Positions 8,637 through 55,400 of a stretch of DNA of 64,000 bases are shown here, piece by piece. Source of the DNA: Folioceros fuciformis. Lineage: Eukaryota. The notes beneath the pieces are model-generated. The model was not told the DNA's origin. It did no database searches and saw nothing but the letters and a program-made list of their open reading frames with translations. The position numbers were made by a program, and so were the translations under genes. The DNA is taken from contig JBNGIO010006336.1 of NCBI GenBank assembly GCA_049999805.1, forward strand, positions 221,347 to 285,346, written 5' to 3'. Positions within the stretch are counted from its first letter, which is position 1, and every line of letters starts with the position of its first letter.

Positions 8637-10734
8637 TCATTCAGTTTTGGCAACAATCGTTTGCACAACTTTCATACACATCTCTTCCAAAAACATCTTC
8701 GCTATCCTCGTAGCATTACCTACAACATCATTTGTCGTACACGGTCTTGGCGCTATGGTCTCCACTGGCGTTGTATCATTCTCCTCACCCTCCTCATTGA
8801 TAGGCGGAGGGATTAATGCTTGCCATATTTCGTCCTCAATAGGAATATACGTAGTCTCCAATCCTTCATCCTCCCCAAAGTTCAAATACTCTTTAGCTGT
8901 CATCGTTGGATATCCAACATCAGCAATTCCTGTCATATCCTCAGATGTTAATAATGCTAAGCTTCGCATGGACTGTTGTAGCTCTTCTACCTGTGTTTCC
9001 AATGAATTAGAGTGATTTTGAGGATCCGACAATGGATCCTCTGGATCATATGGTGGGCTGTTTAGATTCAAAGACTCACAAAATAGAGCATCTTGTGCAC
9101 GCAATTCCGCATCCAAAGTGCTATGCCTCCAACAATTGCGTATGGTATGAGGACTCACAAATGAAGTCCAAGCTTTTACTAGCATAACCACTGCTTGATA
9201 TACATCGATAGTTGTAGCCGCATTGTCTATGATCTGGTTGCATTGATACAAAATCATCAACTTGCGATACTGAGCCTTGAAAGAACAGATGATCCCTTGG
9301 TCCAAAGGTTGATATACGCTTATCACATTAGGTGGAGAGAAAAACACCTTTGTAACTTTCAATTGAGCTGCATTACCCAACCGATGCCCAAGACAATTAT
9401 CCACTATAAGTAACACTCTAATCCGCCCTAATGCAACCATCCTCTGGTCAAAATCTAGCAAAAACTTTTCAAACAGCTCTATTGTCATCCATGCCTTTTG
9501 GTTTGTAGACTAGATAATATTCAAATTCTCGGGATTTTGAACATTCCTGATGGAGAAAGCACGAGGCCTAAGATATCTGTTAATCACAAAAGGTGGCAAT
9601 TTGCAAGATCCATCAACATTTGTTGTCAGTCCAATTGTCAACCGATCCTTAAACTACTTCTGTCATGCAACACGCATTGTTGCAAGTGTCATGTTCGGCG
9701 GTGCTCTGAAGAAAAGACCAGTCTCTTCCATATTAAAAACATTTGCAGCTCCATAATCAAGAACTTGAAGTTGCAGCTCTCTAATAGCTGCCTTCACTGC
9801 TGCCGTATTGTCAACACTCCCTACCTCTCCATGTCTGACAACTGATTTAAAGTTATACCTTTTCTTCCAGCGAACAAACCCAACCTCTATAGTATGTCAT
9901 TTTTGGTCTCTCATCTTCAGGAATCCTCTCGTGGAATTTGGAAGCCATCTCACGAAGCAAGTCATCTGAAATTGTGGGACCTTGAGCTTGGATTGCAAGA
10001 GCCCAAACGTGTACTGTGTGGTCAACCTGTGGGCATACGGCTGGTCTATCCCTCATTCCTGCCATATTAGTTGTTGGACCAATGGCAGGGTCCAACCATT
10101 TGTCTTCGTCGTTCACAATCCTAGACAATGCACTTTTAGAAGCTGCTATTAAAAACTTCTATATAGTCCATCTAGTTAACTCCTTAAGTGTGCAAGAGTG
10201 TTGGACATAATATTCGCAAACCTCTTTCTTTTGTTGCTTTGTTAGAGTAGCATGCTTGCGCGGCGACTTGGGCTGCATTGTTCATACACGTCAAAGAGAA
10301 TGGGTAAGGAACACATACAAGATATCTCACAGCAAGACAACAACTTACAACACCATAAGACAACTTGTAGAATGAAACAACTTATGTACTAGGAACAATG
10401 CTTCTGATCACAAAGCATAGTGTACAGAAACTATTGCATATACAGGCCCAATCTCGATGATTGACTGTTTATGTTTTATGATATAATCTCAATAGCCTTT
10501 AACTTGACAGAATCTCAATAACTCATGATTTAATCTCGATAAGACGATTTTTTCAATTTTTTTAAAATATTTATTTTCTTTTTTACAGAAGTATACTTGC
10601 ATTGAATGGTTGGGAAATATATTTTCATTTATAAATTAAAAAAATTTTCTATTTATAAATTAGAGGGATTTCTCATTTAGCATGTAGCCCATTCAAGAGT
10701 AAGCCCGGGCGTCCAATTAGAGGGGTTTGATTTG
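8637..10734 (-). mobile_element. pogo/Tigger-like (CENP-B HTH + DDE_1) DNA transposon, degenerate
   Basis: ATG at 10278 (MQPKSPRKHATLTKQQKKEVC, HTH-like). NMEETGLF near 9720, LLIVDNCLGH, PPNVISVYQPLDQGIICSFKAQYRK. In-frame stops. TIR-like AATTAGAGGGGTTTGATTTG followed by TA at 10715-10736. Confidence 0.85.
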
Positions 10735-10862: not shown

Positions 10863-13115
10863 CTAAAGCTTCATTGCAGTTCGCATTGAAGAGTGAAACA
10901 TCCTTCCCCCTGCTAGTTCATCTAGTCGACGACGAAGGCGAGGAAAGTTGGCCGTGCTTTCCGCCTGCTCAAGCGATTCCGCAGCCGCTTCATAGTGGGG
11001 CTGCAAGATTTTATAAAGCAGCAGACGGACGTCGGTGTCTCCGAACTCATGGGTGGGTATCTCTTCCAGAACCTTCAATGCTTGCACGCCATCATTCCCA
11101 GACACAAATGCACGGAAAAGCCTGATCCTGGAGAAAATGTTTAGCGGCAACCCTGCCCTTTCCATGGCTTCAACAACCTCTAGAGCTCGTCGAGAATCTT
11201 TCTCAACTGTGCAGCCATCCAGTAAAGCTTCAAGACCTAGGCGCGTAGGGTGCATGCCCATGTGCCTCATGACCTCCAGCATTGCAAACCCGTCGTCTAC
11301 TGTAGTAGGGCATCCACTGTAATCGTCGTTCTTGTCTCCAATCGAAATAGCGAGAAATATCTTGTCGAACAACACTTCTGCATCTGCATTGCCCTTGGCG
11401 CTCACCTCTTTCAGAAACTCCACGGCCCATTCAAGCTCTCGCTGCCGAACACAGGCTAGCAGAATGGCCACATAAGACAAGGTCAAGTTCACCTGGCCAG
11501 TCCCTTTTGTCTCCTCAAAAACTGCAAACATGCGATCCAAGTCCCCTGATGTCCCCAGTAGCCTGAGAAGCATCCCCGTTGCATAAGCATCTGGCTGGAT
11601 GTGGGCTCTCATCATCTTGTCATACAGTTCCAGAGCTTCGTTAACACGGCGGTCGGCTGCCAGACCAGTCAGCAGTGCACTTTGTACCTCCATGCCAAGC
11701 TGCTGGCCTTCATCTTCGGCTTCTTGCAGCAACGCACGTGCCCGGTCAACCTTGCCACAGCGGACCAAGACGCTTATCACGGAGGCTAGCACATACTTCG
11801 TGGCCCTTATACCCTTGCTTTCCATGTCCTTCAGCAACTTGAATGCTCTCTGTTCGTCTTTCCTTCGAGAGCAAGCATGAAGTAGTGCTGCGTATGTCGC
11901 AGCATCAGGCTCTACCCCATCTGCTGCCATCTCGCCTTGCACAGAAAGAGCGCGCTTTAGCAGGCCTTTCCTTCCAAACCCCTCGATTATTGGACTGTAT
12001 GTGTGTGCTGTAGGTTTGATTCCTTGCTGCTTCATCTCTGCAACAAGGTTGTAAGCCTTCTCCATATCATCTGCCTGGACACTGGCATGTATCAGCATGT
12101 TGAAAGTCACAGCAGTTGGCTCTACTCCGATTCGCTTCATGTGCTTCACAGCCTCATATGCATTGTCCACCCTCATCTCCCTGCAATACTGTCGAATAAA
12201 AGGATTGAACGAGGAAGCATTCCACTGTAACTCCTTCTCCTGCATCTCCTCCAGGAGTGCAAATCCTGCACATGATAGGCCTTGTTTGCAAGCTGCATCT
12301 ATCAACACGTTGAATGTAGCTGGGCTAGTTGTAACAGGCGCTACAGCCTTCTCCATTCTCCTAAAAGAAGCCAAAGCTCCATCAAGCTTGCAACTATCTG
12401 TCACACCAGCCATGTAGGCACTGATAAGGTAAGACACGCGTGGTCCCTCCATGCCTGGCCTGCCCCCGCCCTTGAGCAATCCCATGTGGTAGATAGCTTC
12501 TTTCTCATACCCACATCTCCCGAGGCATTGAAATGCTGCAGCCAATGCTTTTTCGCAGGACGCATTCAAGGACGCGACTGCCAGCAGTTCCACAAGCTCA
12601 TCAACTCTGCCTAGGTCAGCTAAGGCCTTCATCAACCAAACATGCACAGAAGGTGGGAGAACGAAATTAGCAGCCTTTGCTGCTGTGAAGACACCAAGGG
12701 CCTCGTCCAAGTCTCCTTCCTTTATGCGAGTGTTGAATTCATGCCGCTTCCTCTCATTCTTCAGCAGCTTATCACCAGCAGGTTTAGACGGTCTGTCAGG
12801 GCTTGGGGAATCCGGCAGTTCGGAGAGCAACTCCTTGTCCAACAAATCAGGGTCTTGTGCATTGCCAGCATTTGAGGTAAAAATCTTAGTCAAACCTGTC
12901 TTCGAGCTTTGCTCCTTACTCAGGCTACTGTCCACCTCATGAGGTTCAGGACAAACTCCTCCGACGTCAACATGGTCGATCATTAGCCTTGTTGTGGGCA
13001 TGGGGAACACAGTTGATGAAGAGGAGAGAGCCCGCCGGCAAGCAACTGCTGCGAGGTGGTGAAAAACCCCGGCTGTTCGCATGAGGTACGCCACTGAGCC
13101 ATGAACGCTGACCAT
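10863..13115 (-). CDS. P-class pentatricopeptide repeat protein, intronless, probably mitochondrial
   Basis: 750-aa ORF with tandem 35-aa P motifs (TFNVLIDAACK, TFNMLIHA, TYSPIIEGFGR, TYAALLHAC). R/S/A-rich N-terminus. Confidence 0.9.
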   Translation of the reverse strand: MVSVHGSVAYLMRTAGVFHHLAAVACRRALSSSSTVFPMPTTRLMIDHVDVGGVCPEPHEVDSSLSKEQSSKTGLTKIFTSNAGNAQDPDLLDKELLSELPDSPSPDRPSKPAGDKLLKNERKRHEFNTRIKEGDLDEALGVFTAAKAANFVLPPSVHVWLMKALADLGRVDELVELLAVASLNASCEKALAAAFQCLGRCGYEKEAIYHMGLLKGGGRPGMEGPRVSYLISAYMAGVTDSCKLDGALASFRRMEKAVAPVTTSPATFNVLIDAACKQGLSCAGFALLEEMQEKELQWNASSFNPFIRQYCREMRVDNAYEAVKHMKRIGVEPTAVTFNMLIHASVQADDMEKAYNLVAEMKQQGIKPTAHTYSPIIEGFGRKGLLKRALSVQGEMAADGVEPDAATYAALLHACSRRKDEQRAFKLLKDMESKGIRATKYVLASVISVLVRCGKVDRARALLQEAEDEGQQLGMEVQSALLTGLAADRRVNEALELYDKMMRAHIQPDAYATGMLLRLLGTSGDLDRMFAVFEETKGTGQVNLTLSYVAILLACVRQRELEWAVEFLKEVSAKGNADAEVLFDKIFLAISIGDKNDDYSGCPTTVDDGFAMLEVMRHMGMHPTRLGLEALLDGCTVEKDSRRALEVVEAMERAGLPLNIFSRIRLFRAFVSGNDGVQALKVLEEIPTHEFGDTDVRLLLYKILQPHYEAAAESLEQAESTANFPRLRRRLDELAGGRMFHSSMRTAMKL

Positions 13116-13429
13116 CTGATATGAGATCTAAACGATGGCTCCTGACTGCAGAGAAGCAAATACGACCATTTGTCAAGGATGTCAGACGTGATGCCCACCC
13201 GCGATGAGTTCAGAGGCCCTTTCGGTTCAACTTCCTAATTAGCACCACGCAATCCGCAGCTATCACAAAGCGGATTCTTCACTTGCAGATGACAGGTCCA
13301 TCCAATACATGAGAATTCTTCCAAGGAAATTGTTCACAGCCTTGTTAAGCAGCAGCAAACAGATACCGCACCCAATAACGATGTGACAGGTCTTATTAGC
13401 AGCATCCGAATGATGAGCCTTCCCGGGAC

Positions 13430-17613: not shown

Positions 17614-19103
17614 TCAGTGAGCAGTGGCACGAGTCTGATCATCTGCTGACCTTTTCAAGATGCAATAATGAGAAACACATCCATCTCTCAAGTACTTGCG
17701 AAATCTCTTAGACCATGGTCGCCCTTTGGCAACCTTTCTGGCCTCCACAGTGGACTGCACGTCTTCATACCGCTTCTCGTGTTGCCTCTTTTCCTGCTCC
17801 TTCGTTTCTTCCTGTCCTTCCTGCTTCTCCTTCGTCTCTTGCTCTCCTTCCTGCTTCTCCTTCGTCTCTTGCCCTCCTTCCTGCTTCTCCTTCGTCTCTT
17901 GCCCTCCTTCCTGCTTCTCCTTCGTGTCTTGCCCTCCTTCCTGCTTCTCCTTCGTCTCTTGCCCTCCTTCCTGCTTCTCCGTCGTCTCTTGCCCTCCTTC
18001 CTGCTTCTCCTTCGTCTCTTGCCCTCCTNNNNNNNNNNTCGTCTCTTGCCCTCCTTCCTGCTTCTCCTTCGTCTCTTGCCCTCCTTCCTGCTTCTCCTTC
18101 GCCTCTTGCCCTCCTTCCTTTCTCACCCCCACTTTCTCTGCTTCCTTCTCCTCCTCCCGGTTCTCGTTGTCCTGCACCTCGGAGTGTCAGTGTGTCTTGT
18201 CGGCCAAGGGCTGAACCCCCAATCAAGATCCGTGCAATGTCTGACCTTCGATCTTGATCCTGGGTTCGATGCTCCAGGCATATCCTCTAGCTCCTGTTGT
18301 ACCTTCTCAGGCCTCTCAGGTTTCAAGATGCCAGAAGCAAGCAGGACATCCTCTTGCTGCGGCAGCTTGCCCAACTCGTGCGGAGTCCGCACCGGCTCAT
18401 CCGCAGGATTGAGGACCAAGGCGGCGTCCTCACGGGCAGCTCCCGGGGAGCCTGCCTCGCCATCCAGGTGGGCTGGCAAATGCAAAGAGAGCAGCAAATC
18501 CCGGCTCTGACCCAACAGCAATAGGCACATTGTGATCCGACAACTACGTGGATACACTTGTTCTGAAGCGTATGCTAGAAACGTGCATACAGTGACCTGA
18601 CTCTTGAGCTAAAATGTCTCACAATGTGAAATGCCTGCAGCAGTGCATAAAGTAACCTGACTCGCTCACAAACGAGACCGTACGGGCGGGGCAGAATTGA
18701 GCTCACCGAGAACAGACTGTTGGACACCAAGGACACCCTTTGTTCCAGCAACGACACCCGCTCCAACACCGTCCCCTTCTCTTCCACCTCCTCCAAGGCT
18801 GATCTGGCAGGCCTGCACCGCCTATCCAGACTGCCCGGGGTTGAAGGCTCCGACCACCTGGTCTCTCCTGTCACGATTGAACTTGGACTGCTCAGCGGCA
18901 GGGCTTGCCCGTCTTCCCAAACGGCCACCTTCATAACAGGGAACCTGGACCTTACATTTGCCCCTGCTCGAGAATTGAAAGGAATTCGTGTGTCCATGAA
19001 TGCCATCCAACGGACAGAGGGCAGAATGCAATACCTGGTGCTCCAGTCGCTCCAGTCTGAGTAATAGTGGTGTCCCTGGCTGGTCCGGCGTACCCATCTC
19101 CAT
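17614..19103 (-). CDS. Uncharacterised plant protein with conserved LERLE / RCRP..ALEEVEEKGTVLERVSLLE segments and an acidic 10-aa repeat tail
   Basis: Four exons joined by plausible GT-AG introns: MEMGTPDQPGTPLLLRLERLEHQ | VAVWEDG...LEQR | SRDLL...GSRSK | DNENREEE...(EGGQETKEKQ)n. Confidence 0.6.
17790..18118. repeat. 30-bp coding minisatellite, at least 10 copies, spanning an assembly gap
   Basis: Unit ttcgtctcttgccctccttcctgcttctcc at 17801, 17831, 17861 and onward. N-run at 18029-18038. Confidence 0.95.
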
Positions 19104-23504: not shown

Positions 23505-26500
23505 CTACTTTGGTCTGCCCCTACTCTGGCCATGCTTCTCATCACCAACCGTAAAACTATGCACGAGCCCATCCTTGTCTGCCCACGAGCTCTGACCTGG
23601 CTGCTTCCATGCACTGATTCTCTCTCTCATAGCCTGCACCTTCCGAGCCTGCTCCCACATCTGAGCACCAGTGAATATGTTTGACATCAACACGTACGCT
23701 GCAGCATCTTTGTCATCTATCTTGATTGCTTCATTGAAGGAATGGAGTCCCACCTCCACATTGCTCCACTTTCGACACGCACCCAACAGAGTGTGCCAAA
23801 CAGCTCTATTGGGCTGTAAAGGCATCGTCCTTACTACAGCAAGTGCCTCATACAAATGGCCTGCACGGCCCAGGAGATCTACCATGCATGTGTAGTGATC
23901 TTCTGTAGGAACAATGCCATTATCTCTGTTCATAGACTGAAAGAACTCCCACCCCTTGTGAACTAGTCCCGCATGACTGCACACCGTTAGTAGACTCAGA
24001 TAGGCGATACTGTCCAACGGTAGGCCATCAGCTTTCATTCTCTGAACCAAGTCAAAGACCACTTCACTGTCTCCCTGACAGGCGTATCCTGCAATCAGGG
24101 CATTCCAGACCACAAAGTCTTTTTCATGCAACACATCAAACACCTGCTGTGCATCGACCATGCTCCCGCACTTTCCGTACATGTTTATCAAACTGCCTGC
24201 CACAAACTGATCACCTTGAAGACCTTGCTCTACAATCTGTGCATGTAGTAGCCTTCCCAAATATAAAGCTGCCACATTTGCACATGCCTGCAGGAGGCAC
24301 ACATATGTTACAGAATCGGGTGCAGCTGCGCCTCCTTCCTGCATGGCACTAAAGAGGCGGAGTGCTTCGTGCTCCATCCTCTGCTGGCAATATCCTGCAA
24401 TCATGGCATTCCATGTCACTACATCTTTATGAGCGAGCCCATCAAACACCACCTTCGCATCTTCCAAGCTGCCACACTTTGCATACATGTTCACCAAACT
24501 GTTGGCTGCAAATACATCAGCTTGATGCCCTTGCTTTCTGATTTGGGCATGAAGCTGCTTCCCCTTCTCCAATGCCAGGGTGCCCACACTGGCACATGCC
24601 TGCAGAAGGCACACAAATGTCATGGTATCGGGTACAGCGACTCCTCCTTCTTGCATAGAATTATACAGAATGAGGGCTTCATGGCCCCTTCCCTGCTGAG
24701 AATATCCTGCTATCATGGCAGTCCACGTCACCACATTCTTGTCATCAAGTCTGTCAAAAAGTTTCTGTGCTTCGTCCAAGCTTCCACATTTCGCATACAT
24801 ATTCACCAAACTGCTGGCGACAAATACGTCAGCTTGGTGACCTCGTTCTCTGATTTCACAATGAAGTTGCTTCCCCTTCTCCAACGCAGAGGGACCAACA
24901 GATGCGCATGCCTGCAAGAGGCAAACAAATGTTACAGAATTGGGTATTGCCATGCCACCTGCTTCCATAGCACTGTAAAGGCGGAGGGCTTCCTGCCCCA
25001 TGCCCCGCTGGGAATATCCTGCTATCATGGCAGTCCAAATCACCACGTCTTTTTGACAAAGTCCGTCAAACAGTCGCTGGGCGTCTTCTAAGCTTCCGCA
25101 CTTTGCATACATGTTCACCAAACTGCTGGATACAAAAGCATCAGCTTGGTATCCTGCTTCCCTAATCTGTGCATGAAGCTGCTTGCCCTCCTCCAATGCC
25201 GAGGTGCCCACACTCGCACAAGCCTGCAGGAGGCACATAAAGGTCACAGAGTTGGGTACTGCTATGCCTTCATCTTGCATAGCACTGTAGACGTCAAGGG
25301 CTTCCAGCCCCTTACCCCGCTGGGAATATCCTGCTATCATGGCAGTCCACGTGACCACATTCTTTTGCTTAAGGCCATCAAACATCCTCTGGGCGTCTTC
25401 CAAGCTGCCACACTTTGCATACATGTTTACTAAACTGTTGGCTACGAAAACATCAGACTGATGTCCTTGTTCTCTAATCCGTGCATGAAGGTGCTTCCCC
25501 TTCTCCAATGCTGATATGCCGACACTTGCACATGCCTGCAAAAGGCACACGAATGTCACGGCATTGGGTACAGCATCACCTTCTTCTTCCATGGCACTGT
25601 AGAGCCGCAGGGCTTCTTGCCCCATGCCACGCTGAGAGTACCCTGCTATCATGGCAGTCCAGGTGACCACATCTTTCCGACCAAGTCCATCAAACAGCCT
25701 CTTGGCATCCTCCAAGCTGCCACACTTGGCATACATGTCCACCAAGCAGCTGTAAACAAACAGACCAGGCTCCACGCCAGTGGCCAACACAGCAGCGTGA
25801 ACCTCCTGCCCGGATTTCAAGTCTCCGCCCCTTGCACAAGCCTTCAGAACTGCTACAAACACGTAACTATCCGCCTTCACATCCGACCTGCACATCCGAC
25901 GATACAACGCTATGGCCTCCCTGGCTCGCCCCTGCTTCACATGCGCAGAAATAACGGAACTCCACATGAAAGCATCTGGCTTGTCAACCACTTCAAACAC
26001 ATCCATTGCGTCTTTCAACCTGCCATTAGAGGCGTACAACCGCAAAACAAAGTTGCACATGAACGTCTCCGCCTGGTACCCCATCCTCACCATCAAAGCA
26101 TGCATGCGGATGCCCAAAACAAGATCGTTCTCCAGTACACATTTCTTCAACACTTCGCAAAACAGTGATTTGGAGATACAACAGTCCTTCTGCACCAAAA
26201 CTCCCAGACCCTCAACAGCTTCAGCGAGGTGGCCATCACAACACAGCCTGTTCACCATCCCACCTGTCACAATGCCGTCGTCACCTGCAGGCCTGCCTGG
26301 TATCTCCGAATCCAGGGTAGCACGCTGCGCATCCACCCAGCCTAGCTGATACAAAGTGTTTAACCAGAGGACCTCCCGACACTGCCTCTGCCAGAAGTCG
26401 GGCACCCAAAGGCTTTCCCCACTTCGCCTGCTATCCAAACCAAGCGTGGGGTCCCGGTATCCACACACTCGTCCAGCAAAAAATCCTCTGGGACGGGCTG

Positions 26501-26720
26501 GCGTTGTTGTAGAACTGTTGCTGCACCTCCCGAGTTGGTTGTGCGCCCACACTTGGTTGCTCGGAGTACGGGGGCCGGGAGCTCTTCCTACACTCATTGC
26601 CAAACCATGACATTGTTGCGGCCAGGAAGAAGGTCCCCAAAACACGTCCGTATAGCTGGACAGAATTCCAATGCTCCAGACACCCATTCCTTGAAGCTGA
26701 ACACCTTCAAGATTTGACAT
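23505..26720 (-). CDS. PLS-class PPR protein ending in E1-E2-E+ (PG-box-like), no DYW; candidate organellar RNA-editing factor
   Basis: 1071-aa intronless ORF. P-L-S triplets (VVTWTAMIAGY / VTFVCLLQACA / SLVNMYAKCG); HYTCMVDLLGRAG; YVLMSNIF; WKQPGQSSW...HSFTVGD then stop. Confidence 0.93.
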   Translation of the reverse strand: MSNLEGVQLQGMGVWSIGILSSYTDVFWGPSSWPQQCHGLAMSVGRAPGPRTPSNQVWAHNQLGRCSNSSTTTPARPRGFFAGRVCGYRDPTLGLDSRRSGESLWVPDFWQRQCREVLWLNTLYQLGWVDAQRATLDSEIPGRPAGDDGIVTGGMVNRLCCDGHLAEAVEGLGVLVQKDCCISKSLFCEVLKKCVLENDLVLGIRMHALMVRMGYQAETFMCNFVLRLYASNGRLKDAMDVFEVVDKPDAFMWSSVISAHVKQGRAREAIALYRRMCRSDVKADSYVFVAVLKACARGGDLKSGQEVHAAVLATGVEPGLFVYSCLVDMYAKCGSLEDAKRLFDGLGRKDVVTWTAMIAGYSQRGMGQEALRLYSAMEEEGDAVPNAVTFVCLLQACASVGISALEKGKHLHARIREQGHQSDVFVANSLVNMYAKCGSLEDAQRMFDGLKQKNVVTWTAMIAGYSQRGKGLEALDVYSAMQDEGIAVPNSVTFMCLLQACASVGTSALEEGKQLHAQIREAGYQADAFVSSSLVNMYAKCGSLEDAQRLFDGLCQKDVVIWTAMIAGYSQRGMGQEALRLYSAMEAGGMAIPNSVTFVCLLQACASVGPSALEKGKQLHCEIRERGHQADVFVASSLVNMYAKCGSLDEAQKLFDRLDDKNVVTWTAMIAGYSQQGRGHEALILYNSMQEGGVAVPDTMTFVCLLQACASVGTLALEKGKQLHAQIRKQGHQADVFAANSLVNMYAKCGSLEDAKVVFDGLAHKDVVTWNAMIAGYCQQRMEHEALRLFSAMQEGGAAAPDSVTYVCLLQACANVAALYLGRLLHAQIVEQGLQGDQFVAGSLINMYGKCGSMVDAQQVFDVLHEKDFVVWNALIAGYACQGDSEVVFDLVQRMKADGLPLDSIAYLSLLTVCSHAGLVHKGWEFFQSMNRDNGIVPTEDHYTCMVDLLGRAGHLYEALAVVRTMPLQPNRAVWHTLLGACRKWSNVEVGLHSFNEAIKIDDKDAAAYVLMSNIFTGAQMWEQARKVQAMRERISAWKQPGQSSWADKDGLVHSFTVGDEKHGQSRGRPK
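24250..25790 (-). repeat. 312-bp tandem repeat (one 104-aa PLS triplet) x5 inside the PPR gene
   Basis: The motif ta(t/c)cctgc(t/a)atcatggca(g/t)tcca recurs at ~24391, 24703, 25015, 25327 and 25639, a constant 312-bp spacing. Confidence 0.9.
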
Positions 26721-27227
26721 CCCAGATCAATCATCCCGTTGGAGAGACCAGTCAGAACATAGCCTCATACATCTCTTGACAAATTGTTGAACTGTTTTTC
26801 AAAAATCAGTGGGAGAATGTCGGGTGCCAAGAGGTGATGACGAGGGAAATGCTCCATCTGAAAGGGTACGGTTAGACCGCTTGCCACCAACAAAGAAATC
26901 ACCATGGAGATTCCTTTCAGTGAGGAACAGCTAGCACACGAAGATTACCGAAACCCTCGGACAACAAGCTTGGTGGGCGGGAAAGATGTGAGCCTTCTTT
27001 ACGATGGAGTGAAGCATTTAGTCTGTTGCAAGGGAATAAGAGAGAGCTTGGAAGAGAAACTTCCTGGCAGCTCCTGGTCTGCCGGCTAAACCGAAATGAA
27101 CCAGATGAGCCTCTAACTTCAGTCCAGAAGCGTGCTGCTCCTAGATGTCATCGAACGGCATTACAAAGTCGATCGAGGCGATTCCTCTTGTCATTGCCGT
27201 CTGCTTCTTGATCGCAGCGCAAGCATC

Positions 27228-44395: not shown

Positions 44396-47383
44396 ATGGT
44401 GGAACCTGGTGGGTGCGTAATGAAAGACGAGGAGACGTTGGATGCCTTTCCTGGCAATCGAATTAGTATGGATTCATCACAATTGCAAGCACGTAATAGT
44501 TTCAGGGACTTCCCACGGTCGATGCAGAACTGCGGGCTTTCAAATGGTCCCTCAACGTGGACGGTGGACGTGGAACCGCATGCAGTGAAAGAGCATCAGC
44601 CCGCCACGCACAAGACTGCAGCGCGGACTTCGGGACCTCCACCAGCACCCATCACCTTGAAGGTTGGTTCAAATTCAATCGCCTCGTCACCAAATTCGCT
44701 TGTCTTGTCAAAAAGTTATTTGCAATTGGTTTGTGTGCTGTCTAAAACTGTTCCTAAGCTCTCAATCTTTCACGGTCTATTGTTTCCCAGCTCCTGAGAT
44801 GTTAAGTCATTCTGCAGGCTTCCACTTGCATGGTTATGGCTTTGAAATTGCATGTTCAATACTAGCATGGCCGCTGTTAATAACTCTCAGAACGTCCCTC
44901 AGGCAACAGTACCAGTAGAGTATGGTTTTAAATAGCAGTGGATACCGCATCGTGCGTTTGAGTTCTGAACAATAGAGAGGACAATTTTTTCAAATTTCTG
45001 GAACAAACTAGCAATCTTCGTGAAGGATGCAATACAAACCACGGCACGGAAATAGGTGGTTTCGAGCTGTTTGTCGCATGTTATTTGTGAGGAAGTAGGA
45101 GTAAAATTTTCACCTGTGCAAAATCCAGAGATTTCCTCGCAAGAGAGTGGGCAGGAAATCTGAAACCTGTGTTCTTGTTTCGTTTGATTGTGCAGTTTGA
45201 AGATGTCGTTTACAACGTGACCCTGAAGTCGAAGGTGCAATGGTGGAACCCAGCAAATATGGTCTGTTGTGTGCAGGAAAGAGGAACGGAGAAGGAAATA
45301 CTGAAAGGCATCACAGGGACTGTAAAGCCTGGAGAGATGCTAGCGATGCTGGGGCCTTCAGGTAGCGGGAAGACAACTTTGTTGAGCATTTTGGGAGGTC
45401 GTGTAGCAAGTGGGAAGCTCTCAGGCACCATTATGTACAATGATTTGCCATACAACAAAGCTGTCCAAAGACGAACAGGCTTTGTCACTCAGGATGACAT
45501 CTTACATGTACATCTTACTGTTAAGGAGACCCTGGTGTACGCGGCACTATTGAGGTTGCCAAGTAATAGATATAACAGAAAGGAGAAAATTTTGAGGGCA
45601 GAGGAGATAATTGTTGAGCTCGGATTGGAGAAGTGTCAGGATGTCAGGATTGGGGACACGTTCATACGAGGAGTATCTGGAGGTGAGAGGAAAAGGGTCA
45701 GCATTGGTTTTGAGCTCATCGTGGATCCCAGTTTGTTGTTGCTAGACGAGCCCACTTCTGGCCTGGACTCCACAACAGCATCTCGGATAATCAGCACACT
45801 GCAAAAGTTAGCAAACGCGGGGAGGACTGTGCTCACAACCATACATCAGCCATCTAGCAGAGTATTTCACATGTTCAACAAGATTATTTTGCTGTCTGGA
45901 GGGCGCGCACTGTATTATGGTCAGGCAAGCGAAGCAATTCCCTACTTCGCTCCCCTCGGCTTCCCCCCAGTTTTGGCAACGAACCCGGCAGACTATATTC
46001 TAGATCTTGCAAATGGTAACTGTTGTGAGACCTTTGCTTACCTTTCTGAATATTGGCAGGCTGGTCTTGCTTTAATTTGCTTGTGGGTGTGTTGGGCCTG
46101 TTTCCTGTAACAACTTCTGTGGGCCATTCTGAATTGTGGTATTTTCATTTTGTATTTCCAGGTGTGACGCACGATATGCAGCCTGGTAGTGACGAAGGAC
46201 TACCCAGCGACGAAGCTGAAGAGCTAAGAAAACAGCAGACCAAGGTGCAGGCTGCCGTTGTTGATCGTTTGTCTGATGCATATCAGCGGCTTTTGAAAAC
46301 AAAGGCGAAACGAGAAGTGGATAGCCTTAAAGCTACGGAGCAGGAGATTAAAGGTGTGGCATCGATCGTTTTTGTTCTGCTTGATTTTTGAAAGCAGTTG
46401 CATGATTTAAGCCTTTATTGAACGCTGATCTCCTGTCTCTCACCAGCATTGAAGGAGAAGGTGGACTGGCCAACATCGTGGGTGGACCAGTTCAGAGTTT
46501 TGCTCGTGAGGGGACTGAAAGAGAGAAGGCATGAAGCTTTTGGAGTGTTACGCGTGACACAGGTTTTGGCGGTTTCATTTATTTGTGGACTACTCTGGTT
46601 TCATTCGACTACGGCACATATTAGAGATCAGGTTGGTTATGACCGTTTCACAATGAATTCGGGCAATCCTTCGTTTGCTCCTTATTGCCTAGCCTTCTCC
46701 TCCTCCTCCTTTTTGACTTGTTCTTCGGACAGCTTGGATTGCTTTTCTTCTTCTCAACGTTCTGGGGATTCTTGCCCCTGTTCACCGCCATTTTCACCTT
46801 CCCTCAAGAGCGAAAGATGTTGATAAAGGAGCGCGCCTCAGGAATGTACCGGTTGTCCTCATACTTCTTCGCGAAGACAATTGGGGATTTGCCTCTGGAA
46901 TTCGTTCTGCCTATCATATTTATTATCATCGTCTACTGGATGGGCGGTCTGAAACCAGCTGCCGACACCTTTCTCGTGAGTATGCTGGTTCTTCTGTTCA
47001 ACGTATTGGTCTCGCAGGGACTCGGCTTATTCCTTGGAGCTGCAGTGATGGAGACCAAGCAGGCAACAACATTGGCATCTGTTATCATGCTTCTTTTTCT
47101 GCTTGCTGGGGGCTTCTACGTGCAGAAAACACCACCCTTCATTGCATGGGTTAAGTACCTTTCGTTCAGCTACTACTCCTTCAAAATACAGCTGTCACTC
47201 CAGTACGACAAAGACCAGACATACCCGTGTGCTAGCGGGGTTTGTCGAATTGAAGACTTCCAGGAAGTCAAGAACGTCGGTCTCGGACATATTGGCACAA
47301 GCCTCCTGGCTCTTACAGTTATGATGGTCGGATACCGGTTTCTGTGCTACTTGGCACTGCGACGGCTCAAGGGCTTCAAATAA
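44396..47383 (+). CDS. ABCG: ABCG half-size transporter (WBC type, NBD-TMD)
   Basis: [44 protein letters not shown] with KERASGMY and LAGGFYV. Confidence 0.96.
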
Positions 47384-47806
47384 GCGTCTGGACGCATACA
47401 TTTGGTGATATTATGCAGGCGAACCGACACCAACGTCGAGAACATGTAGGAACATGGAGACATGTAGGAGGTGTTCCTTTCTGAACGGATTCCAGTTCTG
47501 TGGATCTACACGTCGTCAGGGCCGTCGGCAAAATGATGGATACTCTGTGCATCTGCGAGTATCATTTCGCGCCTCTCCATGCAAGAAATGTTCTTCATCT
47601 GTGTGACAGAGTCATGCAGGCCGAACATTTTTGGTAACAATTTTTCCCCACTTAAGTATTAAGTAGACAAGTAGTAGTACTAGAACGTTTGCATGGACAA
47701 GCCTGGGTACTTTATTCCAGACCTCAGCCCGGTTTCCGCCCAGTCTACTAGAGATCGGGGCGGGCGAGGCGACGACGTGTTTGTTAAGTTGTTAACAAGG
47801 TCGAAA

Positions 47807-50800
47807 TTACTTATGCCTGTCACATGAACACCAGCCATCTACAAAATGATGAACACGGTGTGCATCTCTAACTATGATCTCGCGCTTCTCAACACGCGAC
47901 ATGATTTTTGTCCCACTGTGACAGTCATTGCACATGCGAAGGTTCTTAGTGACTAGCAAAGTCGCGCCATCCGGAGTGTTAAGCAGACCATAGGCCAATG
48001 CTAGTTTTTCAGCATGACCGCATAACGCATCCTCCTTCTCTCTCTCAGAGACTGGCTTCAGCACTAATTCTGTATGTGGCACATGGCCTCCTTCTTCCTT
48101 AAGTAGCAAATTTGAGCTCCTCAGCTTAGAGGAGATGTCATCCCTTTCCTCCCCAACAGTAAAATCCTGGACCTTCCGATCCAACTCAATCCACGCCCTA
48201 GCAGGCTTCTTCCAAGCACCTGCAGACCTCCTTAGGCTTTCAATCCTCTCCACATCGACCCACCTTCCAGTGTTGGCATACAAATTCGCCAATAGGACGT
48301 AGGCACCGGCATTCTGGGGTTCAAGTTCGGTGAGATGGTCGAAACATCGCTGGGCACGGTCTACGTCGTTGTGGCTTGCACAGGAAGTGAGCAAGGATGT
48401 CCACCCAACAACATCCTTCTCAAAAGGCATACTTAGCAGCATATTCTCGGCCTCATCCATGCGACCTGCCCGTCCAAGAACGTCGACCATAGATGTGTAG
48501 TGCAGGGCCCCAGGAGCAATGCCATGGTCTTCCACCATGCTTTTGAAAAACTGTTGAGCGTGTGATACCAGTGACTGGTGACTGCAAGCCACGAGAAGAC
48601 AAAGGAAAGTCGCTTCATTGGGCTCGACCCCTTCCTGTCGCATCTCCTGAAAACACTGGATTGCCATTTGGCTGTCATCGTGTTGGCTGTAGCCATAGAG
48701 CAGAGAATTCCATGTCACCACATCTCGTGTGGGCAGCCTGTCAAACAGTCTGCGAGCATCGTCCAAGTAGCCGCATTTGGCGTACATGTCCACCAGGCTG
48801 CTTCCAACAGCCACCTCAGTTTCTAGTCCCTGTCTCTTGATTTCGGAATGAAGTTCCCTACCGTACCCTAAAGCTCCAATGCTGGCACACGCTTTCAAGA
48901 GGCACACAAAAGTGACATGATCAGGAGTCATGCCCTCTTGTTGCATGAGTTCATACAGATGAAGCGCCTCCTGACCAAGCCCATGCTGAGCATATCCTGT
49001 GATCATGGCATTCCATGTCACCACATCTTTTGTTGGCAGCCTGTCAAACACTCGTTGAGCATCCACTAGACTGCAACACTTGGCATACATGTCCACCAAG
49101 CCATTGCCAACCAACAAATTCGATTCTAGCCCTCTATCCTGTATCTGTGAATGTAGGTTCTTGCCCTCGTGTAGAGCACCTATACTTGCACAAGCTTTGA
49201 GGAGGCACGCAAATGTAACATGACTCGCTAAGGCCACGCCCTCCTGATGCATACTTGCATACAGAGAAAGCGCTTCTTCATTGAGCCCGTGTTGGCAGTA
49301 TCCTGTAATCATAGCATTCCACGTCACCACATCCCGCTTTGGCAAACTGTCAAACACATATCGAGCATCCGCCAAGCTTCTACACTTCGCATACATGTCC
49401 ACCAAGCTGGTACATAAGACTACATCATGTTCAAGACCCTGCTTTCGAATTTGTGCATGGAGTTCCTTGCCCTGACGCAAACATCGAATACTGGCGCATG
49501 CTTTCAAAAGACAGACCAGTGTCGATTCAGTCACCTCAGTTAGGCCACTCTCTTGCATGCACGCATACAGGGTCAGGGCTTCCTGGCCAAGACCACAATG
49601 CACGTAGCTTGCAATCATGGCCCCCCACATCTCAACACCTTTGATTCCTTGCTTGTCAAACACACTTCGAGCATCTTCAATGCTGCCACAGTTAGCATAC
49701 ATATCCACCAGACCACAGGTAATAATAGGATCAGCTTCCAGACCCCTTTCCTTAATCTGAAGATGGAGCTCCTTGCCCTCATTTAACAATCCAGTGTTGG
49801 CACATGCTTTCAAAACGCACGCATATGTGACATGATTTACCGCAACAGTGGCATCCTTTTGCAGACTTTTGAACAGAGACAAGGCCTCTACTCCGCACCC
49901 ATTCTGAGAGTATCCACTGATCAAAGCATTCCATGTCGCCACGTTCTTTGTAGGCAACTTGTCAAACACCATGTGAGCATCCTCCATGCTTCCACATTTT
50001 GCATACATGTCGATCAGGCTATTCCCCAAAATCTCATCTATCACAAGCCCTTTATCCTGAATTTCACAGTGAAGCTTCTTGCCCTCACCTAAAGCTCGAA
50101 TACTGGCACAGGCGTTGAGGAGGCAAGAATACGTCACCTGGTTGGCTGGAAGCATTGCCTCCTGCTGCATTGAAGTATAGAGAGAGAGAGCCTCCTGACC
50201 AAGCCCTTGCTGAGCATAGCCAGCAATCATGGTGGTCCAAGTTACAACATCATTTGAGGGCAACCTGTCGAATATGCCACGAGCTGCCTCCATACGGCCG
50301 CATTTCGAATACATGTCGACAAGGCTACGGCCTATGACTACATCACCATCGAGGCCTCTTTCCTGGATTTCCAAATGGAGCTGCTCGCCTTGGTGTAGGG
50401 CTCCACTGGCGCCACACGCTTTCAGGAGGGGCACGAATGTATAGCCATTTGGCATGGTGACACCTTCCTCTTTCATATTTGAATAAAGAGTGAGTGCTTC
50501 TTGAGCAAGACCACAGCAAGCGTATCCCCCAATCATTACAGTCCATGTTACAACGTCTTTAGATGGCAGGTTGTCAAACACGCGGCGGGCATCTTTAATA
50601 CTGCCACATTTCACATACATGTCTACCAGACTGCTTCCAATTACCACTTCAGCTTCAAGTCCGTGTTTCACTACTTGAGAGTGAAGCTCCTTGCCTTCAC
50701 GTAAGGCTCCGGTGCTGGCACAAGCTTTTAGGAGGGATGCATATGTGACATGATTCGCCGAAGTCATGCAATCCTTCTGCATGCTTACGTACAAAGAAAG

Positions 50801-51867
50801 GGCTTCCTGACAGTGCCCATGCTGAGCATATCCTGCAATCATAGAAGTCCATGTGACCACACTTTTGGTCTCCAAACTCTCAAACACTTGGCGTGCATCC
50901 TCCAAGCTCCCACATTTTGCATACATGTCCACCAGAGAATTTCCCACAAACGTGTCAGGCTCAAGCCCACTCCCTAGCACGTCAGTATGGACCTGCTTCC
51001 CAGATTCCAAATCTGCCATACTTGCACAAGCCTTGAGGGCCTTAACAAATACGTGATTGTTAGGCTCTACAGATGACCGTCGCATCTCTTGATATAATCG
51101 TATTGCCTTCACTGGCTGTCCATGATCAACATGTGCAGAAATAACGTAGAACCAGGAGAAGGCGTTAGGTGTGGCCAGTTTAGCGAACACCTGCATAGCG
51201 TCCTGCAACCTGCCATTGGAAGCATACATGCGGATGAAGTGGTTGGCCAAGAACGTTGTACACTCGTAGCCACTGTCGAGAGTGAGAGCATGAACCCGTC
51301 TGCCAACGACAAGATTCTTCTCCAGGATGCATCCTTTGAGCAAACGATAAAAGGCTGCATCAGGCACGTACGACCCTTGACCCACCAGGACATGCAGGGC
51401 CTCAACAGCATCATTGAGCTGCCCCTCGTCGCGTGGCTTGCCCCAATTCCCAACTTGTGACGGACTTGCCACTCTGTACAGGCAGGCCACTGTCACCACA
51501 CAGTTCTGCACGTTCAAACAGACCTTGAAGCACAGAGAAAAGGGGTGTACCTCGCAGACTGATCATGTTGGCTCGTTGGATAGACACCAGGAAGATTTGC
51601 TGGTTCGGCAACGCCAGCAGTTTGCGCTGTTAGAAGGTTGCCCTGGACCCAGGCGAGCTGGGAGTCAATCCACAATCCCTCCGTTCGGACGGTGTGCGCT
51701 GAATCACTACACGCGGACTTGAACTCCAGTGTTGTGCATGGTTCCGCTTCAGCTCGTAAGGACGAAAGGCGTCTCCACCATTTCTTCCCAGCCCTCAGGT
51801 GTTTGGATCTGTTTTGAACCAGATTCCCGACAACCGAATGGCTCCCAATTTTCCCACCTTTCCTCAT
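47807..51867 (-). CDS. PLS-class PPR with a DYW:KP-type deaminase-like domain ending DRHK; candidate U-to-C editing factor
   Basis: Exon 1 51867-51551 and exon 2 51473-47807 joined by a 77-bp GT-AG intron give 1327 aa. About nine PLS triplets; WKKPARAWIE; HAEKLALAYGL; NLRMCNDCH; CSCDRHK*. Confidence 0.93.
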
Positions 51868-52473
51868 CAGGCGGGCGTTGCCGTCTCACCAACATGCCAC
51901 TAACCTAAAGAATCGAGGAGCAAAAGGGCTGGCTTGCGCAAATGTGTTCATCGTGTATGTCCCACAGGTGTGCTACATGGCATTCTGCGCGAGGGGTTCT
52001 CCTAATAGAAGACGTAAGAAATGGTGCCCTGACCAGAGCTGGAAATGATGCGACTATGCACCAACTTTTCATTCCCCTCTGCGTGAGCTGCAAATCCTCC
52101 AACACAGTGGATGTTCCGGTGCCTCAGCAAACACACACCATCAAATTTTGATGCTGAGAGTTATGTGGTGCACTGGTTAAAGGTCTGTTGTACCTATTCC
52201 TTCAGACATACTACGTTCTGGGTAAAACATCGTGAAACTCTATGCGCTCGCCCGCCCGGCCAATGGTGTACCTTTATGTACAGAATTGGACCTGCCTTAT
52301 AAAGGTCTCTTCCAAGGCTAACTTACCTGGTTAGTAAGCACGCTAAGTAGGTATATAGCACTTTCAACAAATTGATCGTAGTATACAAAGCTGCGCTCTA
52401 GGGTGACAACAAAAGCCGGATGGAGCAAGCCATGTTGTTCCCCAGAGCGGCTGAGGTTCGGTCCTGGAGAATG

Positions 52474-55400
52474 TCAAGGTTCCTCTGGTGAACCCCACAG
52501 ACAACGTCTGAGCGATACCGAGAGGTAGTCCATTGCTCCCTGGGGATGCTGGAATACGAAGCACGCTCCCACGCACACGGCCAGAACTCCCACCATGGTC
52601 ATAATGCTACGGGCCCCAATCCTCACATGCTGGTTGGCAAAAGTAGAATTCCTGTAGCTAAACCTTCGAGTCCGTCTGGATGCCCAAAAGTGCTCTATAT
52701 CCAGGTCCGAAGATGCTTTGCTGGAGAGGAATGGCTCCTTCAGATTTTCGATGTCCACGACACGGTGCCCTGTGTAATTTACGGGGACAACTAAAGCCCC
52801 ATTCCCAACGGAAGGCGGGGATGCAGATATTGCTTCATCACCCTGCCCAAGAGGTGCACCTCTGCTGCCGATTTCCAAGGGTTGGCTTTGCTGGACGAAA
52901 CCGGAATCAGCAAGCCAACTGCGCAGAATATTTTCTAGGACTTTGCTGATCGTTGGATTTTCCAACGCATGAGCACCATCCAGGTGAGCGGACATGCCGA
53001 CACCAAAAGACACTGCAGAAGACAATATCCGCCCTGCAACAGAAGGGCAGCCTCCGGCCAAAGCGAACCTGAGAAGCCGTCGTAGCCTTGTTGCATGCCA
53101 CTGCCTACCCACAAAGGTGTCAAGTCTGTCTGGGGTGCTGTACCGTTCTGGATAGCTAAACACCCACCCCAAGTCAAGCAGTAGCGTATGGACCATCCTC
53201 CAGAGATCGGAAGAATTGGACCCGGAATGCAGCCCGAGCCTGCTCAACAGTGTCTGCAGCTCAGCGCACACCTCGGCATCGGCGACTAGCAACGGGACAT
53301 GATTGCTTGTACCATGGTTGTTTTCAAACTCAACATACACCACACCACACCTAACGGAGTTCACAGCAGGAATCCTTAGCTCATAAGGCGACGTGCCCCC
53401 ATCCGCTCTGTCCTTGCCTGGTTGCATCCCTTGCACATAATTACTCCTTTCAACAGAAAGATATTTTCCCCCAAACGAGAGAAACGGCCTAACTTCTCCA
53501 TAACGAAGATTTTTGCCGTGCACTTGCACAAGTGTAGATGCGCCAGCTTCTATACACACTGGCCACACGAAATCCAGCTTTGCTAGTTTTTCTCTCAACC
53601 CATTGTTGCGTATATCAGTGACATGCCCTTTCAAAACCTCACACACCTGTTCCCCTAAGCAGGCCATAAAGTGGCCTGAGTCCCAAAACCCTCCACCTGA
53701 TCCCTGAACAAGCTTGGCCACATAAGCAGCCCAGTTTGCCTCGAGATCGTCCCACATCTGCTGCTCCATGGACAGGAACAAAGTTAGAATGGTGCAGCCA
53801 GATCGAATATATCCCTCTAGTTCCACAGGCATGTTCCCTATCCACTCCAAAATCTGTTGACGCAACCTGCGGGGAAAGTCACCAGGATTCCAGTCATAAA
53901 GTTTGAAAGATATGCGGCCTGAAGGGAAAGGGGACGAGTAGGTATGGGCTTTTCTATTCAGAGGTCTATACGAAGAAGGATGCTGTTGGAAAAGAATATC
54001 CGCATCATGTGCCCCAGGGATCTTTGGGTTGGGAAAGAAGTTGTCCCCAAGGAGGTCGTCTTCAAGAAGAAAAGACAGCAGCGACTCTTCCTCTAGTCCC
54101 GATTTCCCGGGATTGAAGCCGAATTGCTGGCCCGACATATCCCCAGAGGATGCACCCCAGTTTCTTGCATTCGCTTCACCTGCCATGTCATCACAGGGAG
54201 GCAGTCCTGTGGTGGCCGAGACTGGATCTCCAAACACAGAGCTGGGGAAGACATTGATCGCACCAGCACTAGCCCTCCCTGTCTCACTCGAGTGCAACCC
54301 TGCTCCCGACGTCGCCGGCTGCAGCAGGTGCGCATCCACCGCCGGCAATTGCAGTCCTAGAGTATCAGTGGACTGTGACGGGCCACACATAACCGAGCTC
54401 TGAAGAGAATCCAAGCAAGAAGAAACCGTGGTGGTCCCACAACATCTGCCTACAGCCGCCTCCACCGACGACGAGCTGAGAGTGGAGGCCAGCTTAAACG
54501 AAGGTTCCGAATCCAAAACCCCCGACACCGGCGCCTGCTCCATAGACGCAGAGTTCTCCGTCGCAGGTGACGGGCTAGACTTGTCCTCACCTCCGAGCTG
54601 AGCATCCGTAGCCTGGTGCCCGGCTCCCTCCCCCGTCCCAGTCTCCCCCGACTCCATCATCTTCCTCCTCCTCCTGGTGTTATGCCTCTCAAGCTTCCGC
54701 CTACAGCTCCTCTTTTCATCATCGAAATCCGTAACCTTGTGAAACTTGCCACACTGCTGACAGTAGCGATGAGGCTCCCCTTTCAGCTTCACCGTGATAG
54801 CATTAGCGCAGCGAAGACACACCCGGTGGCGCTGATGGTACCCCTTCAGCCTCCCGAGGTCCTCCCTGCATGCCTCCACCTGACACATGGCCGTGGCCCT
54901 AGTCCGCTTCCGGCTAACCACATCCTCCTCCTCGTCATTGTCCGTGCACCCGCACGGCGTCCTCTCCCCCACCGCGCTGGGACAAGGATCCTGCTTACCC
55001 CCCGACATACTGGACAACTGCTCCGTGACATCCGGAGACTGGCTCTCATCCGCCTCGAAGATGCGGCGGCTCGGGAACGCAACGTCCAACCCCGCCTTGC
55101 TCTTCTCTGCTGCTGCAGCACCACCACCACCACAACCCTCCCGCACATGAGCACACACACGCACACACATCCACAACCATGACGCACATTCCACATCCTC
55201 CCACACTCACCCCGCCCTCGTCCGGGTCCCCGCGCCCGCTTGCCAGCCCCCCCCGCTCCCTCCCTCTTCCGATTCCCGCTCCCGCTGCCATCTCCATCCC
55301 CCACTCCGCCCTCGCTCTCCACATCAACATCCCCATCCACAGCCAGGACCGCATCCGGGCGCGAGTTGGCCACCAGCCGCACGCTGTCCCAGTCCCAGAG

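Follow-up and report, generated by a model that had tools for sequence, protein, structure and literature searches.

A two-exon hornwort gene encodes a long PLS-class pentatricopeptide repeat protein that carries a DYW:KP deaminase domain and is a candidate for a U-to-C organellar RNA editing factor

Introduction

Deaminase domains of the DYW:KP class are found, according to PMC9478123, only in hornworts, lycophytes and ferns. They comprise 132-133 instead of 136 residues, lack the xHP residues and have a conserved Lys88 (PMC9478123, PMC11845758), with Ser69 of the PG types being located three residues later than Ala66 of the KP domains (PMC11845758, PMC9478123). Hornworts edit with over 1400 pentatricopeptide repeat (PPR) proteins (PMC10030945), and in A. 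agrestis, full-length members of the DYW:KP class are prevalent and track the number of U-to-C sites (PMC12548569). Here we describe a PPR gene of the DYW:KP class in the hornwort Folioceros fuciformis, located on the minus strand at 47807-51867 of a 64,000-nucleotide stretch of contig JBNGIO010006336.1 (assembly GCA_049999805.1), which we call the window and which consists of gene-dense nuclear land-plant DNA with approximately 50% G+C. An earlier note, made from the letters only, had described the end of this gene, from the last seven residues of the E2 motif through the DYW domain to the stop codon, as a candidate U-to-C editing enzyme of the DRH type.

The closest systems for which U-to-C activity is described are consensus designs. 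Three of seven such designs perform U-to-C editing in E. coli, two GRP designs reaching approximately 22-26% and the fern design KP6 approximately 50% (PMC9478123). These active designs are KP2, KP3 and KP6, for which C-to-U editing was undetected in E. coli in the experiments reported there, and mutants in which the HxE and CxxC motifs are changed to HAA and AxxA abolish the U-to-C editing (PMC9478123). Lys88 is essential for U-to-C editing by KP2, KP3 and KP6 (PMC11845758), and its replacement switches the enzymes to C-to-U editing (PMC11845758; PMC11713852). Such assays require proteinase K treatment ahead of RNA extraction (PMC11845758). KP2 and KP3, as GRP consensus designs, and KP6, as fern consensus design, belong to the same domain class as the domain studied here, in which all the residues needed by the designs, i.e. 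HxE, CxxC and Lys88, are present; they differ in being consensus domains placed on a short tract of three PPR triplets, while the present protein is a native candidate editor with approximately 30 motifs (PMC9478123, PMC11845758).

Class membership of the deaminase domain

The translation of the minus strand contains all the strings quoted in the earlier note, i.e. KKPARAWIE (48187-48213, with the KP domain beginning at 48208), VGEERDDISSKL, HAE, CNDCH and CSCDRHK. The four canonical features of DYW:PG domains, i.e. the PG box, the xHP residues, HSE and DYW as the last three residues, are all absent from this protein. The segment described as shortened and without HP comprises seven residues compared to 11 in the PG-type rows, and phmmer alignments to the solved structures 9kfx and 7o4e place a gap of four columns exactly at their SHP/SHPE residues. 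Counted from the Lys of KPARA, the domain comprises 133 residues, fitting the length of the KP rather than of the PG type, and its residue numbering agrees with that used in PMC11845758 and PMC9478123. No variation is seen in an alignment of 37 rows (A1) at the catalytic and zinc-binding residues (H, E, K88, C, C, H and the C-terminal H..CxC), which also align to those of 7o4e. Lys88 itself does not discriminate between KP and PG types, the position being occupied by Lys in 169 of 171 rows of the larger alignment described below, PG types included.

We collected 190 relatives from two overlapping searches, a word-indexed one (44 relatives) and an exhaustive one (150 relatives), the latter yielding 2474 representatives with E <= 0.001, of which 43 reach E <= 1e-30. 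The domain is matched by each of the 190; the 170 spanning it were kept and 20 were dropped, resulting in 171 rows together with the query. Simple features divide these rows into 35 with short segment, HAE and a non-PG box, the query included, 84 with PG box and HSE, and 52 others. A maximum-likelihood tree (IQ-TREE quick search, LG+G4) with support from the Shimodaira-Hasegawa-like approximate likelihood ratio test (SH-aLRT) only, its resolution being limited by the small number of 138 columns, places the query in a clade of 26 rows (SH-aLRT 96) comprising 23 short-segment HAE rows and not a single PG row, nested within a KP-like clade of 64 rows (support 96). Clustering with DYW:PG domains, which the earlier note had named as the observation speaking against its assignment, is thus not seen. 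Profiles built for each group from the relatives without the query, which are not the published hidden Markov models, score the query with 225.0 bits for KP, 180.7 for other, 160.5 for PG and 141.2 for the small WW-box group, leaving the PG profile 64.5 bits below the KP profile. The ranking of these profiles persists when box, deletion region, tail and the central residue of HxE are masked (KP 186.3, other 152.7, PG 144.5, WW-box 128.3).

Searching solved structures with phmmer, the domain matches 9kfx (E 2.5e-50), 7o4e (6.8e-34) and 7w86 (1.9e-31). An AlphaFold2 model of E2 and DYW, predicted with a mean local distance difference test score (pLDDT) of 89.7, supports the deaminase fold: its top Foldseek matches are 9kfx (E 1.4e-18, template modelling score 0.81), followed by 7o4f, 7o4e and 7w86. 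The deaminase fold and the zinc sites are common to OTP86 (7o4e/7o4f), DYW1 (7w86) and the synthetic PPR-DYW protein (9kfx), which differ from the query in being C-to-U deaminases with PG box, xHP segment, HSE and DYW tail. Taken together, membership of the DYW:KP class is well supported by feature groups, tree, profiles and fold match, and the class assigned in the earlier note stands.

Next to the KP-like clade, six DYW domains (P0118, P0165, P0168, P0157, P0160, P0169) with the box PG/PAxSWW(T/V)D and HSE form a clade of their own with support 99. This clade is the sister (support 95) to the entire KP-like clade.

The C-terminal tail and the hornwort subgroups

Hornwort KP proteins are divided into two subgroups, DRH and GRP, named by their last three residues (PMC9478123). 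The present protein shares with them the PLS-E1-E2 organisation, the KPAxA box, the loss of xHP, the length of 133 residues, HAE, Lys88, CxDCH and a tail other than DYW. The naming of the two subgroups is said to go back to Gerke et al. 2020. The identity between the query and relatives with a GDRH or GGRP tail amounts to 62-78% over a stretch of 167 residues covering E2 and DYW (A1) and to 65-76% over a C-terminal query of 192 residues.

The closer comparison does not favour placing the protein in the DRH subgroup, as the earlier note had done. Relatives with GDRH tail have Cys6 and end with G130-D131-R132-H133, and the GGRP rows have Gly6; the query, in contrast, has Trp6 and ends with D130-R131-H132-K133, so that the letters DRH are one residue out of register and the last three residues read R-H-K instead of D-R-H. 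In the tree, the query is part of a polytomy with two Trp6 rows, the tails of which are GVDH and GDSP. Two related organisms (runs X4 and X9) have contigs with approximately 90-93% identity to most of the gene; in these contigs, differences at 47812, 47816 and 47818 replace K by Q and R by G, which results in a DGHQ tail. Since the letters are out of register, position 6 is Trp, the nearest contigs have DGHQ and the query lies outside the clade joining DRH and GRP rows, the tail is regarded as variable, and its DRH letters are probably there by coincidence and not as a subgroup signature.

Proteins with Trp6 and variable tails, i.e. the query and the GVDH and GDSP rows, might represent a third KP lineage of hornworts, branching basally to DRH and GRP and retaining PG-like features, which we regard as a long shot. 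If it were true, catalysis might differ from that of the GRP designs, for example by editing in both directions or by another neighbour preference, and the lineage, as a natural intermediate, could be used to study what determines in which direction pyrimidines are edited.

The closest named proteins are two hypothetical proteins of the lycophyte Diphasiastrum complanatum (P0017 and P0018), 54-55% identical in the C-terminal region, of which P0018 shares the KPARAWIE box and Trp6 with the query. The two lycophyte intermediate forms differ from the query by having kept the xHP segment, by HVE and by EDYY or EDFY tails. The present gene stands out only by Trp6 with its tail shifted out of register and by the great length of its tract, which has approximately 30 motifs.

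Gene structure

The locus is a two-exon nuclear gene on the minus strand (Table 1). The open frame running on this strand from 51562 to the TAA at 47807-47809 (1140-residue open reading frame) has its first ATG only in the middle of the third motif but clearly extends further upstream. The starts of relatives lie only 10-40 residues ahead of the corresponding point. We aligned contigs from four public runs, X1, X3, X4 and X9 among them, to 47500-52000. Record 15 of run X3 (4733 nucleotides, no differences) joins 50909-51473 to 51551-52000, the two parts adjoining at record positions 565/566, while record 8 of the DNA run X1 spans 50912-52000 unbroken, including the stretch of 77 nucleotides skipped in X3. 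The skipped sequence starts with GT and ends with AG on the minus strand, and its removal results in one frame of 3984 nucleotides with 1327 codons and a single terminal stop; the ATG of exon 1 is the first ATG past a stop in that frame. The exact skipping of a GT..AG stretch argues for the X3 contig being spliced RNA. Among the contig matches listed, which cover the DNA run in part, the joined form is seen in X3. The description of the product as a full-length protein in the earlier note thus proves right once the 5' intron is recognised.

At the other end of the gene, record 1 of X1 covers 47500-47879 without differences, including tail and stop codon; as this run may be the assembly's own sample, the match is not independent. 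Contigs from two runs of different studies match the gene with no differences. The PPR gene is real, intact and apparently transcribed.

A shorter GT..AG intron candidate of 45 nucleotides (51506-51550) was rejected, because its length does not give the right frame and because it is the 77-nucleotide intron that the contig skips.

In each of the four runs, the contig depth, when summed, reaches the thousands at the bins 48859-49160 and 50822-50972, with many joints in between. Both stretches encode the most conserved cores of P and S motifs, which are common to many paralogues, and the gene's own contigs break there.

Protein architecture and predicted RNA target

By motif parsing, the product is a PLS-class PPR protein of 1327 residues composed of a basic N-terminus, approximately 30 PPR motifs, E1, E2 and the DYW:KP domain. 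Residues 1-39 contain 11 Lys/Arg and no Asp/Glu, and this N-terminus is presumed to be an organelle transit peptide. A degenerate P motif and an L-S pair are followed by eight P1-L1-S1 triplets (P 35-36, L 35 and S 31 residues) and by P2-L2-S2 (35, 36 and 32 residues), E1, E2 and DYW; a PLS tract followed by E1 and E2, as expected of DYW:KP factors, is therefore present. Pfam profiles match with 457 bits (PPR), 430 bits (PPR_2) and 65.9 bits (E_motif, residues 953-1015 of the 1140-residue open reading frame), and DYW_deaminase (PF14432) matches with 121.3 bits at a cut-off of 24 (E 1.5e-35), far beyond chance.

PPR motifs recognise bases by a code of the fifth and the last residue, in which Thr or Ser with Asp specifies G, Thr or Ser with Asn A, Asn with Asp U, Asn with Ser C and Asn with Asn either pyrimidine (Y). 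Applying the code to the P and S motifs only and setting S2 at -4, the predicted bases are Y at -31, C at -28, A at -27, G at -25, A at -24, A at -21, Y at -19 and -18, G at -13, C at -12, U at -10 and -9, G at -7, Y at -6 and G at -4, with E1 suggesting A at -3. The predicted target would read 5' Y-n-n-C-A-n-G-A-n-n-A-n-Y-Y-n-n-n-n-G-C-n-U-U-n-G-Y-n-G-(A)-n-n-[U] 3', corresponding to approximately 28 bits, a level at which most matches to this pattern in public collections would be expected by chance.

Editing direction and alternative explanations

We consider U-to-C organellar editing the most likely function of the protein and on balance a probable one. In the proposed mechanism, the protein would be imported into the plastid or the mitochondrion, where the PPR tract would bind a single RNA site with one motif per nucleotide. 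With the last S motif placed at -4, the DYW:KP domain would be positioned over the uridine four nucleotides downstream, and the zinc site (H65, E67, C93, C96) together with Lys88 would convert this U to C. Organelle import, RNA target and editing direction are inferred.

Several points weigh against this reading. Four of the seven consensus designs are inactive in E. coli, and KP1, which is based on DRH, is not named with the three active ones (PMC9478123); the statement of the earlier note that designed versions are active is thus correct for the fern design and both GRP designs. The query lies outside the clade with SH-aLRT 96 that joins the GDRH and GGRP rows, and it has Trp6, as do PG-type domains. 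KP6 is active in both directions, its preference being reversed by single substitutions (PMC11845758), so the sequence does not fix the direction of editing. All KP activity data (PMC9478123, PMC11845758) come from consensus designs; we found no assay or knock-out of a native DYW:KP protein in the literature searched, which mostly excludes subscription journals. With regard to expression, for which only the parts of the stretch covered by X3 contigs were considered, the RNA nature of run X3 is only guessed, none of the runs being recorded as RNA.

An enzyme editing C to U or in both directions despite its KP-type domain is an unlikely alternative. KP6 edits both ways in human cells, with L6C, V17T, D47E, D116A and I119V favouring U-to-C and E64G, L113V and F133H favouring C-to-U editing (PMC11845758), and two of the latter states, G64 and V113, are native here. 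Trp6 is retained as in the PG-type rows, and in A. agrestis canonical DYW domains number no more than a handful (PMC12548569). On the other hand, four of the five U-to-C-favouring states, i.e. T17, E47, A116 and V119, are native here as well, the match to the KP6 numbering being assumed from the equal length. G64 is present in all 26 rows of the clade and V113 in 25, with P0024 having Ile, and this includes the four GGRP-tailed rows, which share G64, V113, A116 and V119 with the query. As the GRP designs edit U to C without detectable C-to-U editing in E. coli (PMC9478123), G64 and V113 give no argument for C-to-U editing by the present protein.

The domain being catalytically idle, either in a factor that only binds RNA to stabilise or recruit or in a recently redundant paralogue undergoing decay, we regard as somewhat less likely still. 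The inactive consensus designs mentioned above (PMC9478123), the variation of the tail among close relatives, DRHK here and DGHQ in the nearest contigs of two organisms, and the plausible redundancy in a very large family (PMC10030945) would be in line with it. Yet the frame of 1327 codons is uninterrupted, neither Lys88 nor any zinc or catalytic residue is lost and the gene is present in a spliced contig; that 10 of 24 codon changes in X9 and 14 of 29 in X4 are synonymous is a weak additional argument (40/683 differences, possibly a mix of paralogues). Very improbable, finally, is an artefact of assembly or annotation, i.e. a PPR pseudogene without start codon, which the long open reading frame lacking an ATG upstream of the first complete motifs could suggest: the 77-nucleotide intron supplies an exon with an in-frame ATG, and the contigs identical to the gene come from two runs of different studies.

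The gene is a new member of a described, very large family and adds no new principle, since its value as a candidate is common to many paralogues among the over 1400 hornwort PPR proteins. As U-to-C editing has been assayed, in the literature searched, with consensus-designed enzymes only, a native, full-length and apparently expressed DYW:KP gene with gene model and predicted code is a usable candidate for a first native assay or knock-out.

Features and neighbouring genes of the window

Table 1. Features of the DYW:KP gene in window coordinates.
Feature	Position	Strand	Description	Basis
Coding exon 1	51551..51867	minus	ATG at 51867; 105 codons and 2 bases	
Intron	51474..51550	minus	77 nucleotides, GT..AG	skipped in X3 contig, included in X1 contig
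Coding exon 2	47807..51473	minus	TAA stop at 47807-47809	
PPR tract	48413..51466	minus	residues 109-1126; approximately 30 motifs of 31-36 residues	motif parse
E1 and E2	48209..48412	minus	residues 1127-1160 and 1161-1194; 34 residues each	motif parse
DYW:KP domain	47810..48208	minus	residues 1195-1327; 133 residues	motifs, profiles, tree, fold
KPARA box	48194..48208	minus	K1-P2-A3-R4-A5, replacing the PG box	translation
VGEERDDISSKL	48122..48157	minus	segment without the xHP residues of PG-type domains	alignment gap
H65-A66-E67	48008..48016	minus	zinc ligand and catalytic Glu with KP-typical Ala	alignment
Lys88	47945..47947	minus	K of KNLRMC	numbering from K of KPARA
C93-N-D-C96-H97	47918..47932	minus	CxDCH zinc site	alignment
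CSC and DRHK	47810..47830	minus	C127-S-C129 and C-terminus	translation

The window contains three PPR genes within 64 kb. A second PLS-class PPR frame is located at 23505-26726 (minus strand; 1073 codons from stop to stop) with Pfam matches to PPR and E_motif. This frame ends approximately 30 residues past a PG-box-like KQPGQSSW without a deaminase core, and no HxE or CxxCH is found in the three frames downstream of 23505 as a DYW continuation; the product may be an E+-type factor needing a DYW domain in trans. Its box resembles that of the clade with SWW box described above. The third PPR gene, at 10863-13127 (minus strand; 754 codons from stop to stop), is of the P class, matching only PPR_2, PPR_3 and PPR_long of Pfam and neither E nor DYW.

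Immediately upstream of the DYW:KP gene and on the same strand is an SBP-box transcription factor gene (52474-55206, minus strand; Pfam SBP 88 bits). As the spliced contig of 4733 nucleotides extends past 52000 in the direction of this gene, the transcription units may adjoin each other or be connected by read-through. On the other side, exons of an ABC transporter at 45091-47383 (plus strand), with Walker A and ABC signature in the open reading frame 45259-46110, membrane helices at 46817-47383 and the family named by eye, are convergent with the DYW:KP gene, the stop codons being approximately 420 nucleotides apart. A neighbouring PhzF-like gene has 50-52% identity to each of the best named homologues from fern, liverwort and moss and is thus about equally distant from all three, as would fit a lineage with no named proteins in the collection searched; together with the DRH- and GRP-like relatives of the DYW:KP domain, this points to a hornwort as the likely source.

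At 17650-18510 (plus strand), tandem LLLLRLLPSF units broken by a run of N look like a short tandem repeat combined with an assembly gap. Two frames were assigned by eye to remnants of mobile elements, a gag-like frame with a CxxC..H..C knuckle at 4113-5000 (plus strand) and a DDE-transposase-like frame at 8637-9509 (minus strand), and around 8-10 kb the G+C content dips to 0.41.

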